Positions 8,617-16,066 of a stretch of DNA of 64,000 nt are shown here, piece after piece. The stretch's first letter is position 1. Every line of letters starts with the position of its first letter. The notes below the pieces were generated by a model. It searched no databases, was not told the origin of the DNA, and worked only from the letters and a program-made list of their open reading frames with translations. The DNA lies in the NCBI GenBank assembly GCA_963702005.1, contig OY969696.1, positions 2,816,001-2,880,000 on the forward strand, read 5' to 3'. The position numbers and the translations under genes were made by a program. This stretch comes from Candidatus Aminicenantes bacterium. Its GTDB lineage: Bacteria; Acidobacteriota; Aminicenantia; Aminicenantales; JAFGBC01.

Positions 8617-9897
8617 ATGAAAGAGTACACACTCCTCGAGCTCGAAGAAAAAGAACTGACCCAGCTGACCAAGGTCGCCGCGGGGCTCGGCCTGAGCGAG
8701 GAAGATATCAAAGAGGCGTCCAAGCACAACCTTACTTTCAAAATTCTCGAGGCCCAAGCCAAAAAGCAGGGCTTGCTTTTTTCCGAAGGCGTCTTGGAAT
8801 GCCTCGAGGACGGGTTCGGTTTCCTGCGGGCGCCCGAGTTCAGCTATCTGCCCAGTCAGGATGACATCTATGTCTCGCCCTCCCAGATCCGCAAGTTCCA
8901 GCTGCGGACCGGCGACACGATCTCGGGCCACGTCCGGCCCCCCAAGAACGGCGAGAAGTACTTCGCCTTGATCAAGATCGAGGCCATCAATTTCCTCCAT
9001 CCCGACGCCGTCATCGAGCAGCGGCGCAACGTCCAGTTCGAGCAGCTGACGCCGCTTTACCCGCACGAAAAGATCAAGCTCCAGGACGGGAATCCCAAGA
9101 ACCTGAACGCCCGGATCATGGAGCTCCTGACGCCGATCGGCAAGGGGCAGCGCGGCCTGATCGTCTCGCCGCCCCGGGCCGGCAAGACGACCCTCCTCAA
9201 AACGATCGCCAAGTCGATCGAGAAAAACCACCCCGAAATCTACCTGATCGTGCTCCTGGTCGCCGAGCGGCCCGAGGAAGTCACGGACTTCAAGCGGAGC
9301 GTCAACGGGGAGGTCGTCGCCTCAACCTTCGACGAGCCCCCGGTCCGGAACGTCCAGGTCGCCAACATCGTCCTCGAAAAGGCCAAGAGGCTGGTCGAGC
9401 TTAAGCGCGACGTGACCATCCTCCTCGACAGCATCACCCGCCTGGCCCGCGCCCACAACTCGGTCATCCCGCCCTCGGGCAAGGTCCTGTCGGGCGGCAT
9501 CGACGCCAACGCCCTCAACAAGCCCAAGAAATTTTTCGGCTCGGCCCGCAAGGTCGAGGAGGGCGGCAGCCTGACCATCATGGCGACGGCCCTGGTCGAC
9601 ACCGGGAGCCGGATGGATGAGGTCATTTTTGAAGAGTTCAAGGGCACCGGCAATATGGAGATCAACCTCGACCGGCGCCTGGTCGACAAGCGACTCTTCC
9701 CGGCCATCGACATCACCCGGTCGGGAACCCGCAAGGAAGAGCTCCTGATCGAGGAGGTCGACCTGAACCGGATCTGGATCCTCCGCAAGGTTCTGGCTTC
9801 GCTCGGCGAGGTCGAGGCCATGGAGCTCCTTCAGGAGAAAATAGGCAAGACCAAGACCAACACCGATTTCCTTAACGCCATGAGCAAGGGGCTTTGA
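8617..9897 (+). CDS. rho: Transcription termination factor Rho
   Basis: [26 protein letters not shown] and EEFKGTGN. Confidence 0.97.
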
Positions 9898-9915
9898 GGA
9901 GGGGAGGGGCTCCGG

Positions 9916-10860
9916 TCAGGAAGAATCCCTCGGGCCCGCCCTCCGCACAAAAAGGGACAGTTTCGCGGAGAGCATCTCCAAACACTCGGAAAGGCCGAAA
10001 AACTGGATCAAGCCCAGGCGGGAAAGCTTCAAGCGGAGCGGCCGGGGAAGCGTCCGGGGCGTCAATCCTTTTCGGAGGGACTCGGTCTCCTCATCCTCAA
10101 AAAAGATTTTCTCCTCCACGGCCAATCCCCGGAATCCGGCGTTTTCCGGGCAGGCGTCCTGGCATCGCAGGCACCCGATCAGACAATCGATCCAATCGGA
10201 ATTTAGCCAGGCGGGGAATTCCTGGGGCCCGCTGTAGCCGCTGTAGAAGGTCAGGCAGCGATCCTGGCGGAGCGGGAAGCGGTCCTTGCTGATGGCGCCG
10301 CTGGGGCACGCTTTCAGACAAGCCGTACAGCGCCGACAGCGCTCCATGAGGACGGGATCCCGCCAGATTTCATCCTCAGCCAAAGGCCTGTCCGAATAAT
10401 AGCTGACAAGCATGTGATGGCTTCCCAGGTCCGGGAGGTAGCAGATGTTGTTGCGTCCGTAGAAGCCTAGGCCGCTGCGTACGGCCAGGAGCTTCTGCGG
10501 GACGCGGGCGAAGACGGCCCGCTGCCCGGACGCCTTAAGGATGGCGTTCAGTTCCGATTCGACCTTCTTGGTCGTTTCCCAGTATCGGATATAGGAAGGC
10601 GGCACCCTCAAACGAAGAACCCGGCCGTTCCAGCGAAAGACGATGACCGATGGAGAATGCGGAACGGCGGCGATCACGAGGGACCGAGGCTTGAGTTTTT
10701 TTGGAGGGCAAGGACATCCTAATATGCGGGCGTAAGAACGAAAAATGAGGTCGGAAAGCCCATCCTGGCTGTGGAGGGATGCGACCTCATCTTTCAAGTC
10801 TTTACGGCGATCGGCGCGAACCATTCGATGTCGATATCCGAAACCTTTGACCTGATCCAC
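9916..10860 (-). CDS. QueG-like 2x[4Fe-4S] (probably cobalamin-binding) reductase
   Basis: SGLGFYGRNN, CRRCTACLKACP and GCLRCQDACP motifs of the epoxyqueuosine reductase/dehalogenase fold. Confidence 0.7.
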   Translation of the reverse strand: MDQVKGFGYRHRMVRADRRKDLKDEVASLHSQDGLSDLIFRSYARILGCPCPPKKLKPRSLVIAAVPHSPSVIVFRWNGRVLRLRVPPSYIRYWETTKKVESELNAILKASGQRAVFARVPQKLLAVRSGLGFYGRNNICYLPDLGSHHMLVSYYSDRPLAEDEIWRDPVLMERCRRCTACLKACPSGAISKDRFPLRQDRCLTFYSGYSGPQEFPAWLNSDWIDCLIGCLRCQDACPENAGFRGLAVEEKIFFEDEETESLRKGLTPRTLPRPLRLKLSRLGLIQFFGLSECLEMLSAKLSLFVRRAGPRDSS

Positions 10861-11006
10861 GGCGCTGTACCCTTATTTTTTAATGGTTCCCGTAAATCAT
10901 AAGGGAATTTTCCACAGCTGACAAGATCTTAGGCATGGGTATATTCACAAGGAGTGAAAATCGCTATCTGATTTAGAAATAAGGCTTTGGCGAAAGCAGT
11001 AAAATA

Positions 11007-11034
11007 ACGTCGCATAAGGATTATTATGTAAACT
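11007..11034 (+). other. dif site (XerC/XerD recombination site)
   Basis: ACGTCGCATAA-GGATTA-TTATGTAAACT matches the 11-6-11 dif architecture (E. coli GGTGCGCATAA-TGTATA-TTATGTTAAAT) and lies in an AT-rich intergenic region. Confidence 0.85.
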
Positions 11035-11102
11035 ATTCAATTTTTTACCAAGACACCTTAAATAATTAATTCAATTTGAATAAGTGCGTTAGAAAACCAG
11101 TG

Positions 11103-11939
11103 TCAGCTCTCCGCCTTGAGCTTATGAATGATCTCTTCCAGCACATTGATGATTTCCTGGACCGTCGCGTTCTGCTTCTTGAATTCCAGCCTCAACCTGA
11201 AATCATCAGAATCCCCTGGAATATAATTATAGACGAAATGCTTGACCCCCGGCGACTTCCCTTTGATCTTCTTGGACAGCTCTCTCGTATCTTCCCGGGT
11301 TAATCCTCGCCTTGATATCTCGTAAATGAGCCTCTCCATGTCCGCTTCGGTCTTCAGCTTGGCAATCTCTAATATCGTGCTTCGGCTCGTGATCTTGTGG
11401 CTCTTCAGCATTTCCCTGATCTTCGGCGGAATCCGGCTTATCGAGATGATCTCCGTTATCGTCGATCGGGCTTTGCCCAGTTTCTCCGAGATTTGATTGT
11501 GATTATAGCTGTAAAGCTCAATGAGCGCCTTGAGTCCATCGGCCTCCTCGAACACGTCCAGATCCTTTCTCTGAAGGTTTTCGATGAGGGAGATTTCCAT
11601 GGCCTCGTTGTCTTTTACGTCCATTTCGATACAGGGAATCTCTTTCAGCCCGACCCGCTTGGAGGCGATGAACCGCCTTTCCCCAGCGACGATCTGATAC
11701 CGCATCCCGACCGGCCTCACGATGATCGGCTCGAGGATCCCCTTGGACTGGATCGAATTCATAAGCTCCTGGATGTTTCCCAGCTCGCTCCTCGCTTGTT
11801 GGGGGTTGGGGTCGATCCTCTCGATGTCGATCATCCGGATTCTCGGCCCGGCGCCGCGGGCCGCGATTAAATCGACAAAATGGGGGTCATGTCTCATATC
11901 GAGAGTTTCCGGCAAACCAGATCTTTTAGTTTTTTGCAC
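11103..11939 (-). CDS. parB: ParB/Spo0J-family partition protein
   Basis: IDPNPQQAR, GILEPIIVR, IVAGERRF (CTPase arginine patch), ENLQR and an HTH (KLGKARSTITE). Confidence 0.9.
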   Translation of the reverse strand: MQKTKRSGLPETLDMRHDPHFVDLIAARGAGPRIRMIDIERIDPNPQQARSELGNIQELMNSIQSKGILEPIIVRPVGMRYQIVAGERRFIASKRVGLKEIPCIEMDVKDNEAMEISLIENLQRKDLDVFEEADGLKALIELYSYNHNQISEKLGKARSTITEIISISRIPPKIREMLKSHKITSRSTILEIAKLKTEADMERLIYEISRRGLTREDTRELSKKIKGKSPGVKHFVYNYIPGDSDDFRLRLEFKKQNATVQEIINVLEEIIHKLKAES

Positions 11940-12690
11940 GTTTGATCAACTCCTCGGCGATTTTCCGGTACTGCTGGGCCCCTATTGAATTCGGAGCATA
12001 TGTGAATATGGATTCTTTATAGGCGGGAGATTCTTCAAGCTTGACGCTTTTGGAAATGGCCACTTTAAAAACCTTGTCGCCAAAGACCTTCTTGATCCTC
12101 TCTACGACATCCTTGGAAATATTCGTCCTCTGGTCGTGAAGCGTGATGACGACTCCCAAGATTTGAAGGTTCGGGTTGGCCACCTTTTTGACTTTTTCGA
12201 TTGTCTCTAAAAGGTCGTCCGTCCCCTCCAAGCATAAATACGAGGATTGAATCGGGATCAATACATGAGAGGCCGCGACCAACGCGTTCAATGTGATGAG
12301 CCCCAACGTGGGCGGCGTGTCGATGAAGATGAAATCGTATTTATTCCTGATCGGCTGGACGGCTTCTTTCAGCCGAAAGTGTCCGTCGATTTCTCCGATC
12401 AAAGTCGGTTCGAGTTTCGCCATCGATATTTTGGAGTTGGCAATATTCAACCCCGGCACCGTGGACTGATGTATAACGCTCTCAATCCTGTCATTGCGAT
12501 CCATCAAAACATCGTAGAGAGATTTTTTCAAATCCTGAGTATCACGAAGCAACGAAATCGTGCTGTGAGCTTGCGGGTCGGTATCGATCAGCAGAACTCT
12601 CTTGCCCATGAACGCCATGGCCGCGGATATATTCAGCGCTGTGGTTGTCTTTCCGACTCCGCCCTTCTGATTCGTGATCGCGATAATCAA
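11926..12690 (-). CDS. parA: ParA/Soj-family ATPase
   Basis: NQKGGVGKTTT deviant Walker A, IDTDPQ and IDTPP; TTG start with a GGAGG SD. Confidence 0.93.
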   Translation of the reverse strand: MIIAITNQKGGVGKTTTALNISAAMAFMGKRVLLIDTDPQAHSTISLLRDTQDLKKSLYDVLMDRNDRIESVIHQSTVPGLNIANSKISMAKLEPTLIGEIDGHFRLKEAVQPIRNKYDFIFIDTPPTLGLITLNALVAASHVLIPIQSSYLCLEGTDDLLETIEKVKKVANPNLQILGVVITLHDQRTNISKDVVERIKKVFGDKVFKVAISKSVKLEESPAYKESIFTYAPNSIGAQQYRKIAEELIKRAKN

Positions 12691-12987
12691 TGATGCCTCC
12701 CAAGGTTCTAAACACAGCTAAGATATAAAAAAAGCGGCTTCTTTTCAACCCCCTTCGCGAGATTCCAAGGACGCTAGTCCCCAGCGGGGATATCGAATTA
12801 CCGCTTCGGGGACATACAGCGGCCTTGCAGTACTCATGGAGCCGTATCAACGGCTCCATGGGTGCAGCGGTTTCGCAGTGCACATGAACCAGAAACTGAT
12901 CATGTGCGCGCTCCAACGCCTCCAAAGAGTAGATCCCACAGACGTAAGTCCGTTGAGCTTCCGCCCCATCGTATATCGAGCTTGAAA

Positions 12988-13003
12988 TGTCGGCATGCCG
13001 ACA
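12988..13003. promoter_or_regulatory. 16-bp perfect palindrome, candidate ParB-binding (parS-like) site
   Basis: TGTCGGCATGCCGACA has the same length and the same TGT...ACA ends as canonical parS; it lies about 300 bp upstream of parA. Confidence 0.45.
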
Positions 13004-13334
13004 ATTCCCCTCTATCTGATCAAGTTTAGGATCATACTAAGCTATGAATTTTAAAGCTGCATACCTAAAAAGTATTTTAATTACTTTATTATCAATATCA
13101 TAGAATTGCATATTGATATTTCTACTGCCCAGCGATAATCTTCCGCCAAATCAATCGCCGCGCAACGTTCTGTTTGAAACCCAAGAACTCCGGCCCCATT
13201 GCCCCGGATGCGAAAGGTTTGGAATCTGGCCCGGATTGTCTCTCGTCGCTATATTATCATATCTCGATATCTTAATATAATAGCATTAACCCGAATGCCC
13301 GCGCCCCATTTTCTCCTCAGGAACGCTCACGGCT

Positions 13335-13363
13335 TTGATAAATTTATCCGTTTTCGTTATGAT
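13335..13363 (+). promoter_or_regulatory. sigma70 promoter of the methyltransferase operon
   Basis: TTGATA-17 bp-TATGAT. Confidence 0.6.
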
Positions 13364-13393
13364 AATGCGCGTCGTGGAAAGGCGACGAGAAAA

Positions 13394-14272
13394 ATGACCG
13401 ACATTCTGAGTCTGGCCCGCGAGCGAACCGTCCTCCTCGACGGAGGCTTGGGCACGGAGCTTTTTCGCCGCGGATTTCCCCAAGGGGCCTGCCCCGAAGC
13501 CTGGAACGTCGAACATCCGGACATCGTCCAAAAAATTCACAGCGACTACTTCGGAGCCGGCTCGGACGCCGTCCTCACCAACAGCCTGGGCGGAAGCTCA
13601 ATAAAGCTCGCGACCTTCGGGCTTTCGTCCCGGGCCCTAGAGATCAACCGGAAAGCCGCTGAGCTGGCTGCTTCCGTCAGGCCTCAAGGACGCTTCGTGG
13701 GCGGCAGCATGGGACCCGTCGGGAAATTCCTCAAGCCGCAGGGAGATCTCGTCGAGGCGGACCTCGAGGCATCCTACGCCGAGCAGGCCCGAGGCCTGCA
13801 CGACGGCGGGGCCGATTTTCTTCTCCTCGAAACTCACTACGACCTCAGGGAAGCGCTGTCCGCACTCAAGGCGGCCCGGCGAAGCACCCCCATTCCCGTT
13901 TTCGTGACGATGACATTTGACCGCAAGCCGCGCGGTTTCTTCACGCTGATGGGCGATAAGCCCTCCGCCTGTTTCGCCGCTCTCGAAGCCGCCGGGGCTT
14001 CCGGACTGGGAGCCAACTGTACCCTGGACAGCAAGGATATGGCCGACCTCACCGCCGTTCTGAGACCCCTGACCGCCCTGCCCCTGATAGTCCAGGCCAA
14101 CGCCGGCCGGCCCTCCCTATCGGCGGAGGGCGTCGTCGCCTATTCTCAAGGCGTCTCGGACTATGTCCGTTATGTGCCAGACATGATCCGGAACGGCGCC
14201 AATATCATCGGAGGCTGCTGCGGCACGAATCCCGACTATATTCGCGCCATGGCCAAGATCCTCCAACCTTAA
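13394..14272 (+). CDS. Homocysteine S-methyltransferase family protein (MetH Hcy-binding domain-like)
   Basis: LLDGGLGTEL plus GANC and GGCCGT zinc ligands. Start taken at ATG 13394. Confidence 0.9.
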   Translation: MTDILSLARERTVLLDGGLGTELFRRGFPQGACPEAWNVEHPDIVQKIHSDYFGAGSDAVLTNSLGGSSIKLATFGLSSRALEINRKAAELAASVRPQGRFVGGSMGPVGKFLKPQGDLVEADLEASYAEQARGLHDGGADFLLLETHYDLREALSALKAARRSTPIPVFVTMTFDRKPRGFFTLMGDKPSACFAALEAAGASGLGANCTLDSKDMADLTAVLRPLTALPLIVQANAGRPSLSAEGVVAYSQGVSDYVRYVPDMIRNGANIIGGCCGTNPDYIRAMAKILQP

Positions 14273-14281
14273 TCCAGGTTG

Positions 14282-16066
14282 ATGGCCTTCAAGATTCAAG
14301 TCCTGTCTCCCCTACCCCGGACGATCGAAGCCGAGGCCGGCCAGAGCCTGTCCCGAGCCCTGATCGAGGGCGGTATTCCGCTGAACGCTTACTGCGGCGG
14401 AAAAGGCCTCTGCGGAAAGTGCCTGGTCGAGGTCGTAGCGGGAACGCTTCCTCCCCCTCTACCCGAAGAAGCCTCCCTGTTGAGGCGAAAAAGCCCTGAT
14501 TCCCCCTTCCGGTTCGCCTGCCTGCTTCCCGTCCGTAGCGACCTCGTCGTGAAGATTCCCACGATCGCCCTGATATCGCCCCTCCAAGGGCTGACCGAAG
14601 GGATTCTTGCTTCGCTCGACTTTGACCCGGCGGTCAAGCTGTTCCCTTTCAGGCTAGGACGGGATCAGTTGTCCCCTTCCCTCCTCGAATCGCGCGGGGC
14701 CGAGCTATTTAAGCTCCCCTTCAACGATGCCTGGCGTTCGTATTCCTGGCCCGTTCTCCGGGAGGCGATCCGGTCCGCCGGCAACGCGCCCGGGGATTAC
14801 ACGGCCGCGATTTACGAGGAGCGGATCCTTCTCGATGTCGCGCCCGGGGAGAACGCCGATACGGCCTTCGGCCTGGCCGCGGACCTGGGGACCACGACCG
14901 TTGTCATGGAGCTCGTCGACCTCGTCGCCGGCCGCATCTTGGGGAAGGCCATCGGGCTTAACGCTCAGGCCCGTTTCGGGGCCGACGTCATATCCCGGAT
15001 CTCCCATGCTATTCTGGCCCCCGCTCAAGCCGAAGAATTGAGAGAGGCCGCGCTCGAAACGCTGTCGGACCTCCTGTTCCGGGTGGCCGCCGGCGCGAAC
15101 ATTCCTCCCCAGGCCATTTTCGACATCGTCGTCGCGGGCAATACGGCCATGAACCATCTTTTGCTGGGCCGGTCCGTCCGGTCGTTATCCGCCGCCCCTT
15201 TCGAAGCCGAATTCCGAACGCTGCCGCCCCTCGAGGCCGTCGCCTGCGGCTTCCCGGTCCAGCGCCGCGCGAAGCTTTTCATCTCCCCGAATATCGGAAG
15301 CTACGTCGGGGGCGATATCACGGCGGGGCTGCTGGCCACCGGGATGCTCGGCGAGCCGGGAAACCATTTGTTCATCGACCTGGGCACAAACGGCGAGATC
15401 GTCCTCAAGGCCGGCGATACGGTTACGGCCGCCTCGACGGCCGCCGGGCCAGCCTTTGAGGGCGCGAGCCTCAGCTGCGGCATGCTGGCCGTTCCCGGCG
15501 CCGTGGATAGGGCCGTCGGTCCGGACGGGGCCCCGCTCCTATCCACGATCGGAGACAGGACCGCGGCCGGCATCTGCGGGACGGGCTATGTCGACCTGCT
15601 GGCCAGGTTCCTGCGCGAGAGGCTTGTCTCCCGGAGCGGAGCCATCGCGGGCGGAAAAGCCTTCCTCCCCGTCGCCGAGGGGATCTCGGTCAGCCAGAAT
15701 GATATCCGCCAGCTCCAGCTGGCCGTGGCCGCCGTCAGGACGGGCGTCGAACTTCTGCTGAGGCGAAACGGGCTCGCTCCCTCCGACCTGGACGGCCTCT
15801 ATCTGGCCGGAGCCTTCGGCAACTACCTCAACGTCGAAAGCGGCCGGACGATTGGCCTTCTGCCGAAGATCGACCTCGGAAAGGTTCGCTTCGTAGGGAA
15901 CACCTCCCTGGCCGGGGCCAGGGCCATGCTCCTTTCCCGGCGCGCCCGTGCCGAGGCCGTTCGGATCGCGGGGTCGATCGCCCACGTGCCGCTTGCCTCG
16001 GACGCCTCGTTCCAGGATACTTACATCCGGTCCCTGATTTTTCCGGGGACGGGAGATGCCGAGTGA
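14282..16066 (+). CDS. ASKHA-domain reductive activator of corrinoid proteins (RACE/RACo-like)
   Basis: N-terminal 2Fe-2S motif CGGKGLCGKC...C, DLGTTTV, DLGTNGEI, AAGPAFEG and LAGAFG. Confidence 0.9.
   Translation: MAFKIQVLSPLPRTIEAEAGQSLSRALIEGGIPLNAYCGGKGLCGKCLVEVVAGTLPPPLPEEASLLRRKSPDSPFRFACLLPVRSDLVVKIPTIALISPLQGLTEGILASLDFDPAVKLFPFRLGRDQLSPSLLESRGAELFKLPFNDAWRSYSWPVLREAIRSAGNAPGDYTAAIYEERILLDVAPGENADTAFGLAADLGTTTVVMELVDLVAGRILGKAIGLNAQARFGADVISRISHAILAPAQAEELREAALETLSDLLFRVAAGANIPPQAIFDIVVAGNTAMNHLLLGRSVRSLSAAPFEAEFRTLPPLEAVACGFPVQRRAKLFISPNIGSYVGGDITAGLLATGMLGEPGNHLFIDLGTNGEIVLKAGDTVTAASTAAGPAFEGASLSCGMLAVPGAVDRAVGPDGAPLLSTIGDRTAAGICGTGYVDLLARFLRERLVSRSGAIAGGKAFLPVAEGISVSQNDIRQLQLAVAAVRTGVELLLRRNGLAPSDLDGLYLAGAFGNYLNVESGRTIGLLPKIDLGKVRFVGNTSLAGARAMLLSRRARAEAVRIAGSIAHVPLASDASFQDTYIRSLIFPGTGDAE

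Follow-up and report, generated by a model that had tools for sequence, protein, structure and literature searches.

The window analyzed here, a stretch of 64,000 nucleotides (G000:C1:2816001-2880000) from the 4,309,361-bp, single-contig genome (60% GC) of a Candidatus Aminicenantes bacterium, carries a pair of partition genes, here named parA2 and parB2, directly beside a dif site. parA2-parB2 is the second parAB of the chromosome and is situated at the terminus, next to the real dif. A private palindrome, parS2, which differs from the canonical parS, accompanies the two genes phylum-wide and is found nowhere else in the genomes searched. We therefore favor, with a probability of roughly 0.65, the reading that parS2, parA2, and parB2 make up an additional chromosomal ParABS system, inherited vertically, dedicated to the terminus, and physically linked to dif. 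Its function would be positioning or segregation of the terminus, or coupling of the terminus to FtsK-XerCD or to cell division.

The position of the locus on the chromosome is supported by several landmarks. dnaA is located at 504 kb of the genome, and no DnaA-family match lies nearer to the locus. A canonical origin-side set, mnmG-parS-parA1-parB1, is found at 553-555 kb. Its parS, TGTTCCACGTGGAACA at 553,612 between mnmG and parA1, is the sole canonical parS of the genome when at most one mismatch is allowed to TGTTNCACGTGAAACA, which we take to be the canonical consensus. After detrending, the cumulative GC skew bottoms out at 502 kb and peaks at 2,758 kb; dif, at 2,827,007, is on the terminus side. 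parAB2 is separated from both parB1 and dnaA by 2.27 Mb (53% of the genome), and thus has neither the origin-proximal position nor the TGTTNCACGTGAAACA-type site of a canonical chromosomal ParABS. An earlier note on this DNA had proposed, from the window alone, that the pair may be a second, terminus-specific ParAB, and had named findings that would speak against this: a position at oriC, the absence of any other parAB, a dif match other than the chromosomal dif, or a linkage missing from relatives. None of these was found, and the proposal is supported.

The most strand-skewed octamers of the genome were picked without reference to dif, with the replichores bounded either at the skew maximum or at the point exactly opposite the origin. 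Those ranking highest are G-rich (GGGGAG type) and resemble FtsK-orienting polar sequences (KOPS): CGGGGGAG, AGGGGAGG, AAGGGGAG, and GGGGAGGG. The polarity of all four flips within 2,821,423-2,846,263, and the narrowest flip interval, 2,825,901-2,830,714, encloses dif, parB2, parA2, and parS2 (genome 2,827,007-2,829,003). The dif site begins 68 bp past the stop codon of parB2, as had been described earlier, and has the expected architecture of two 11-bp arms and a 6-bp center. No other site in the genome lies within seven mismatches of it, and a matrix derived from 55 distinct orthologous sites gives it 42.1 bits, the runner-up on either strand of the genome scoring 7.4 bits. The arm facing parB2 is presumably of the XerD type, if the XerC and XerD arms are assigned by analogy with E. 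coli dif. Two recombinases of the genome score above the XerD cut-off, and one FtsK carries a gamma domain. With this machinery and the KOPS-like switch around it, the match is the unique chromosomal dif, and the site is predicted to be active in recombination.

The two genes are intact and evolve under purifying selection, and the Walker A, GERR, and helix-turn-helix (HTH) motifs that had been read from the window are all present. ParA2 has a deviant Walker A motif of the Soj/ParA family (pattern KGGxxGK[ST]) in the form NQKGGVGKT (NQKGGVGKTT, residues 7-16), matches Pfam AAA_31 at 3e-57 (193.9 bits), and is 40% identical over its full length to ParA1 of the same genome. The TTG start of parA2 is preceded by GGGAGG, with five bases between them. 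ParB2 has the ParB_N domain (3.5e-26, 91.5 bits) with the GERRxRA box (GERRF in ParB2) and the ENLQR box, followed by HTH_ParB (1.9e-16, 60.5 bits), as expected for the ParB of a ParABS system; CTP binding is predicted. Across 30 orthologues, residues G86-E87-R88-R89 and E120-N121-L122-Q123-R124 and those of the HTH do not vary. In an AlphaFold2 (AF2) model with a mean predicted local distance difference test score (pLDDT) of 77.2, residues 1-19 are disordered, and the ParB N domain (33-122) and a helical HTH region (129-225) are followed by a small C-terminal beta-beta-helix domain (236-276). Identity to ParB1 of the same genome is also 40%, and is confined to residues 37-178. The N-terminal motif of ParB2, KRSGLP....MRHDxHFV, is specific to its family: among 1.84 billion representatives, the top matches of the ParB2 profile carry the signature (K/R)RGLP....MRHDxH(F/Y)V, and the lower matches start at profile position 30 or later and have the usual LG(R/K)GL motif.

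Judged by their relationships, ParA2 and ParB2 are of the chromosomal rather than the plasmid type, and ParB2 forms a clade of its own. The best matches of ParA2 among solved structures are chromosomal ParA/Soj proteins at 171-192 bits (8ray, 191.9; 1wcv, 175; 6iub, 174). The ParB2 profile likewise matches chromosomal ParB structures best (7bnk, 149.9 bits; 1vz0, 147), followed by Noc (138 bits), with KorB at 54.5 bits. Among the NCBIfam models, ParB2 is above the cut-off solely for the generic ParB domain TIGR00180, and it scores far under the cut-offs of the plasmid RepB and PRTRC models. It reaches 157.5 bits with the Noc model TIGR04285, for which the cut-off is 315, and parA2 is always adjacent, whereas Noc has no dedicated ParA. 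Three ParB_N genes are present in the whole genome, and none reaches the Noc cut-off. A search of 72,556 plasmids returned 2767 records matched by ParB2, all at less than 60% identity; the closest rows among the matches listed are 27-36% identical, with a best E-value of 2e-20, and close similarity of the kind that would mark a plasmid-type ParB or KorB was not seen. A quick maximum-likelihood tree of 102 ParB rows placed all 32 motif-bearing ParB2 rows within one clade of 43 rows (SH-aLRT 94) and ParB1 in a separate clade of 26 rows (SH-aLRT 100). The remainder of the ParB2 clade, 11 rows that are N-terminally truncated or degenerate, is nested among the motif-bearing rows.

The linkage of parAB to dif, which the earlier note had observed in this window, is conserved in related genomes. 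Of 40 relatives of the order, 38, spanning nine families, have a full-length ParB2 orthologue (59-87% identity), and the two relatives without it are genomes that are 83% and 69% complete. At all 30 fetched loci parA2 (71-89% identical at the protein level) is directly upstream of parB2 and dif directly downstream in the same orientation. When every locus with a ParB2 identity of at least 50% is counted (67 loci, which partly duplicate one another; 50 are distinct), dif follows in the same orientation in 66, and the one miss stops at a contig end. The distance from the end of the parB2 match to dif is 21-253 bp in Aminicenantia. Identity across the order is 59-70% for ParB2 vs. 54-64% for ParB1, and within the genus both are 87%. 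In three complete relatives (G003, G017, and G023) parB2 and parB1 are separated by 50-55% of the genome.

Beyond the order, 301 Acidobacteriota genomes of at least 90% completeness were searched with a threshold of E ≤ 1e-45, and one ParB2 orthologue was found in 173 of them, representing 133 of 192 genera. Two of the positives, G063 and G185, are unpublished genomes; leaving them out gives 171 of 299. In five complete genomes from two other families, dif is invariably close to the 3' end of parB2 (33-800 bp) and dnaA lies 47-54% of the genome away. The module is read as vertically inherited across the order and much of the phylum.

The candidate centromere was found by screening the 50 distinct Aminicenantia loci for common inverted repeats. 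Its 14-bp core, GTCGGC-NN-GCCGAC, is situated upstream of parA2 in all 50, and the full 16-mer in 49. In the window, the site lies 298 bp upstream of the parA2 start, within an extended near-palindrome (12984-13007), and it is single copy in the 4.31-Mb genome at one mismatch or fewer, where about 0.04 copies would be expected by chance according to our own estimate from base composition. The palindrome is also present at the locus in 34 of 43 loci from other Acidobacteriota classes. In 29 of these other-class loci it falls within parB2, as codons for C-R-x-A-D-I. There, the palindrome's synonymous positions are frozen while adjacent codons vary, a sign of selection on the DNA itself. Eight genomes have one exact parS2 each (G000, G003, G017, G023, G083, G129, G274, and G328). 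The 6.5-Mb genome G146 has five, from 52.7 kb to the left to 76.8 kb to the right of dif, and G192 has four, from 39 kb to the left to 13 kb to the right of parB2. Thus, 17 of 17 exact copies in the 10 genomes with copies are within 77 kb of parB2, and a control pattern, the site read backwards, gave no match. The locus therefore has the palindromic site near its genes that is typical of ParABS, and parS2 is predicted to be the site of ParB2.

Several results weigh against this interpretation. The GC-skew peak is 69 kb away from dif, two further skewed octamers flip at 2.18-2.28 Mb and 2.60-2.62 Mb, and GGGNAGGG, which we take to be the E. coli motif, switches polarity 8-11 kb before dif. ParB2 was not found at E ≤ 1e-45 in 128 of the 301 genomes, and whole families are among these (0/8, 0/5, and 0/20). 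These lineages also have no MinD over the curated cut-off, implying that part of the phylum can do without the system. The linkage to dif is not tight everywhere in other classes: dif was found 68-1773 bp downstream of parB2 in just 15 of 43 contig loci, and no dif was detected within about 6 kb of parB2 in the remaining 28. When five of these 28 were followed further, two had a dif-like site on the same contig, at distances of 9 kb and 41 kb downstream; in the other three dif was not found with the pattern used. G110 has no exact parS2 in a whole-genome search. An approximately unbiased (AU) test rejected the monophyly of the motif-bearing group as defined by a regular expression (p-AU 3e-15) because the 11 truncated or degenerate rows nest among the motif rows; the test was badly posed and is not taken as support. 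Finally, the binding of ParB2 to parS2, clamp spreading, the interaction with ParA2, and the cellular phenotype are all predictions from sequence.

It is also conceivable, and in our judgment unlikely, that ParB2 and ParA2 are mainly regulators, which would either provide a terminus landmark for the place or time of division, in the manner of MipZ on ParB, PomXYZ, or an inverted Noc, or gate XerCD-FtsK at dif. The very tight linkage to dif in Aminicenantia is consistent with such a role. So is the result for MinD, which was not found over the curated cut-off in any of the 301 phylum genomes (again including the unpublished G063 and G185), with control genomes positive; the best match in the present genome is 68.7 bits, against a cut-off of 212.9. 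The failure of all three ParB_N genes to reach the Noc cut-off and the parS2 clusters of G146 and G192, which extend over 50-130 kb around dif and resemble a terminus-domain organizer of the MatP/matS kind, can be read in the same way. However, ParA2 retains every feature typical of a nucleoid-riding Soj-type ATPase and is nearest to chromosomal ParA, not to MipZ (Pfam MipZ 46.6 bits vs. 193.9 bits for AAA_31), and the families without ParB2 are likewise without MinD, so that there is no complementary pattern. The lack of a detectable MinD nevertheless makes a division-related role worth testing. KorB-like, CTP-dependent repression of its own operon and neighbors, with the palindrome as an operator and no positioning of DNA, is a far-fetched role for ParB2. 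It would agree with a weak Pfam KorB match at the cut-off (22.3 bits) and with the location of the Aminicenantia parS2 just upstream of promoter-like sequences of parA2, but in other classes the site is inside parB2 rather than in a promoter, extra copies are tens of kilobases away around dif, a cognate ParA is always co-encoded, and the ParB2 profile gives KorB only 54.5 bits vs. about 150 for ParB. Autoregulation may well coexist with partition.

Base composition and the proximity of a Xer site bear on another explanation, that the module is the frozen relic of an ancient plasmid or of an integrative mobile element exploiting Xer (IMEX) that integrated at dif, the adjacency being due to this origin and not to a function at the terminus. 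Multimer-resolution sites often occur beside par genes on plasmids, a conserved accessory-like block is present on one side of dif, and the linkage has loosened in some classes. In addition, the module is richer in AT than its flanks, as the earlier note had pointed out (GC 0.49-0.50 at 11-13 kb of the window vs. 0.56-0.63 alongside). This difference is found in 25 of 25 Aminicenantia loci (L036-L069; mean 7.1 points), independently of genome GC (30-60%), and is thus a lineage trait rather than a mark of recent transfer; the mean AT excess in other classes is just 1.1 points. An IMEX is bounded by two dif-like sites and has a patchy, strain-level distribution. The module does not fit this description, because a second dif-like site was found neither within 8 kb nor in the genome (the local best has at least eight arm mismatches) and because the module is present in 38 of 40 relatives and, single-copy, in 133 of the 192 sampled genera. 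Other results also argue against a relic: no rep, integrase, or transfer genes were found near the module, both proteins are nearest to chromosomal ParA and ParB with no close plasmid ParB, and ParB2 is as conserved as ParB1. Furthermore, parS2 is kept with frozen synonymous sites, the extra parS2 copies of G146 and G192 are spread around the terminus only, and neutrality of the module is excluded. An ancient origin of this kind may still lie behind the module, but we consider it improbable as the explanation of the present arrangement. Recent capture of a plasmid-type locus, which the earlier note had offered as its alternative, does not agree with the plasmid search, the vertical inheritance, or the shared AT-richness of the 25 relatives.

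A mechanism for the favored terminus-dedicated ParABS can be proposed from established ParABS biology. ParB2 dimers would enter the DNA at parS2 in the form of CTP-dependent sliding clamps and from there spread about 2 kb to dif and further, forming a single partition complex that labels the point of the chromosome to be segregated last. ParA2-ATP bound to the nucleoid would keep this single complex at mid-nucleoid, and its stimulation via ParB2's own N-terminal peptide would keep the system separate from ParA1 and ParB1. After replication of the terminus, decatenation, and dimer resolution by XerCD-FtsK, ParA2 would drive the sister complexes apart. As a result, dif would be placed at the septum for FtsK, and the terminus DNA would then be cleared from the closing septum. 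A more elaborate scheme is put forward only tentatively, since we think it rather doubtful as a whole. In this scheme, clamps of ParB2-CTP formed at parS2 would coat dif, and ParA2 would hold the complex at mid-nucleoid so that it marks the division plane without Min or Noc. The complex would gate FtsK-XerCD and subsequently separate the resolved sister termini, and a DnaA-box-like block beside dif would couple these events to the replication cycle. ParABS would then have been repurposed to terminus segregation and division licensing.

ParABS systems are the textbook machines of origin segregation. The terminus system resembles chromosomal ParABS (Soj-Spo0J) in its three parts, in its protein families (a Soj-type ParA2, and a ParB2 with GERR and ENLQR boxes, HTH_ParB, and a dimerization-like C-terminal domain), and in a 16-bp palindrome with TGT...ACA ends. 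It differs in its location at the terminus by dif, beside a coexisting canonical origin-side system, and in the sequence of its site, TGTCGGC-NN-GCCGACA instead of TGTTNCACGTGAAACA. The N-terminal ParA-contact motif of ParB2 is RGLP....MRHDxH[FY]V in place of the canonical LG(R/K)GLxxL, and its HTH helix reads KARSTITE where the canonical helix is K(D/S)R(T/S)xV(T/A)N. The spo0J gene of B. subtilis contains a parS inside the gene, and in some classes here parS2 is likewise inside parB2.

Noc, the ParB paralogue of Firmicutes, is comparable as a ParB duplicate with altered DNA specificity and a job tied to chromosome position and division, and ParB2 matches Noc models and structures almost as well as it matches ParB. 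However, ParB2 is well below the Noc cut-off and has a ParA partner of its own. Noc sites are spread over the chromosome except the terminus, whereas the candidate sites of ParB2 are concentrated there. MatP/matS of E. coli and ZapT of Caulobacter also use sequence-specific, terminus-confined sites and tie the terminus to mid-cell or division, and the parS2 layout of G146 and G192 is similar. MatP and ZapT belong to protein families unrelated to ParB2 and have neither an ATPase motor nor a CTP clamp, so the resemblance is functional only; moreover, matS sites form a many-site domain, whereas most genomes here have a single parS2 within about 2 kb of dif. ParABS systems of plasmids and secondary replicons, and IMEXs, share with parAB2 a private parS specificity orthogonal to the main system and the placement of par genes by a Xer site, which is common on plasmids. 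In contrast, parAB2 is a single-copy locus of the main chromosome, with vertical inheritance across the order and much of the phylum; replication genes, integration genes, and a second dif are all lacking, and the plasmid ParBs among the matches listed are at most 36% identical to ParB2.

To our knowledge, terminus handling is known only from unrelated, lineage-specific proteins: MatP, ZapT, and exclusion by Noc/SlmA. A terminus ParABS beside dif is apparently undescribed. In the full-text literature, with subscription journals and supplements outside the scope, no description was found of a terminus-located ParABS, of the parS2 palindrome, or of a parAB-dif linkage, and the accessible part of a 2011 dif survey (PMC3025954) has zero occurrences of ParB. 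If the reading is correct, a complete ParABS that has a centromere sequence of its own and is genetically linked to dif, opposite oriC, across a major and little-studied phylum would be a new solution to the positioning and segregation of the terminus. ParB2 is a candidate second example, after Noc, of a ParB duplicate with switched DNA specificity, and the two systems would constitute a natural pair of putatively orthogonal ParB/parS systems on one chromosome. They would also provide a starting point for understanding how the division site is chosen in a phylum in which MinD was not found. The reagents for testing are well defined: a 16-bp site, two small proteins, and a specific N-terminal ParA-contact motif. 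The coordinates of the features are given in Table 1.

Table 1. Features of the parS2-parA2-parB2-dif locus (positions in the window).
Feature	Position	Strand	Description
DnaA-box-like octamer	10909..10916	-	TGTGGAAA; part of a conserved ~100-bp block on the far side of dif
dif	11007..11034	+	28 bp: arm ACGTCGCATAA, center GGATTA, arm TTATGTAAACT
parB2	11103..11939	-	278 aa, ParB/Spo0J-type; GTG start; 14-nt overlap with parA2
parA2	11926..12690	-	254 aa, ParA/Soj-type deviant Walker A ATPase; TTG start
Promoter-like sequence	12720..12748	-	TTGAAA-17-TATCTT, ~30 bp upstream of parA2; 9/12 consensus matches
parS2 (candidate centromere)	12988..13003	.	16-bp perfect palindrome TGTCGGCATGCCGACA, TGTCGGC-NN-GCCGACA

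The module is flanked on one side by genes for trigger factor, ClpP, ClpX, Lon, Rho, and a 4Fe-4S protein, and on the other by corrinoid methyltransferase genes (a homocysteine S-methyltransferase-like gene, RACo, a B12-binding protein, and MttB). The earlier description of core-gene flanks (clpX, lon, and rho) without dnaA, rep, or integrase nearby is confirmed; no XerD-like or integrase match was found in the window, the nearest being at 2,735 kb of the genome. A tRNA gene was considered as an integration target and rejected: the sole tRNA in positions 1-30000 of the window is a tRNA-Leu at 2741-2826, far from the locus. The 4Fe-4S (QueG-like) gene lies at 9916-10860, between dif and rho, and in many relatives rho-lon follows directly after dif. 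This variable gene content beyond dif suggests that the flank was remodeled while parA2-parB2-dif stayed together. The third ParB_N gene of the genome, at 3,134.5-3,136 kb (L003 1459-3002), is divergent (281 aa, 43 bits) and has a 231-aa partner. Several integrase-like matches occur in that region (3,091-3,129 kb), which is probably a mobile element.

A scan of the region for promoter-like sequences gave seven sites vs. 3.2 expected from shuffled sequences, which is weak evidence for the one upstream of parA2. Many Aminicenantia loci have TTATTATCAAtnanTTA 10-25 nt upstream of parS2, and the copy in the window is poor; the motif fits WATCAANNNNTTR, presumably the IHF consensus. Between parS2 and parA2, an inverted repeat at 12827-12868 (19-nt arms, 84% complementary, 4-nt loop) sits in a stretch of about 200 bp that is missing from most relatives. 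A short palindrome in the spacer between parB2 and dif, ATTCAA-T-TTGAAT, was dropped as a candidate site, the spacer being unconserved in relatives. No RNA family was found with Rfam in positions 9500-14500 of the window (E ≤ 1), and a terminator scan found none after parB2. The sequencing runs listed as containing this DNA are DNA runs labeled as wetland or sediment metagenomes, with no RNA run among them.

On the side of dif opposite to parB2, a block of about 100 bp is conserved between the window (10880-11006) and relatives (L006-L070). The DnaA-box-like sequence TGTGGAWA occurs at fixed offsets from dif (+57 and/or +90/91) in 30 of 49 Aminicenantia loci, and the densest TGTGGAWA cluster of this genome adjoins dnaA (504,918-504,940). 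It is uncertain whether the block belongs to the par-dif system; it could be a Xer accessory sequence, a DnaA-titrating site, or the site of another protein. Elsewhere in the genome, near-identical palindromic sites resembling a Xer core, TCATCATAAGCTCNGTTATGATGA, are found at 90,889 and 3,092,353, each a few hundred bases from a tyrosine-recombinase match. G110, a complete genome from another family, has, besides the dif on the parB2 side, three extra matches to the dif pattern with one mismatch, which share an arm ending in ...TTATGACAAC or ...TTATGGTAAC and may be secondary Xer sites.

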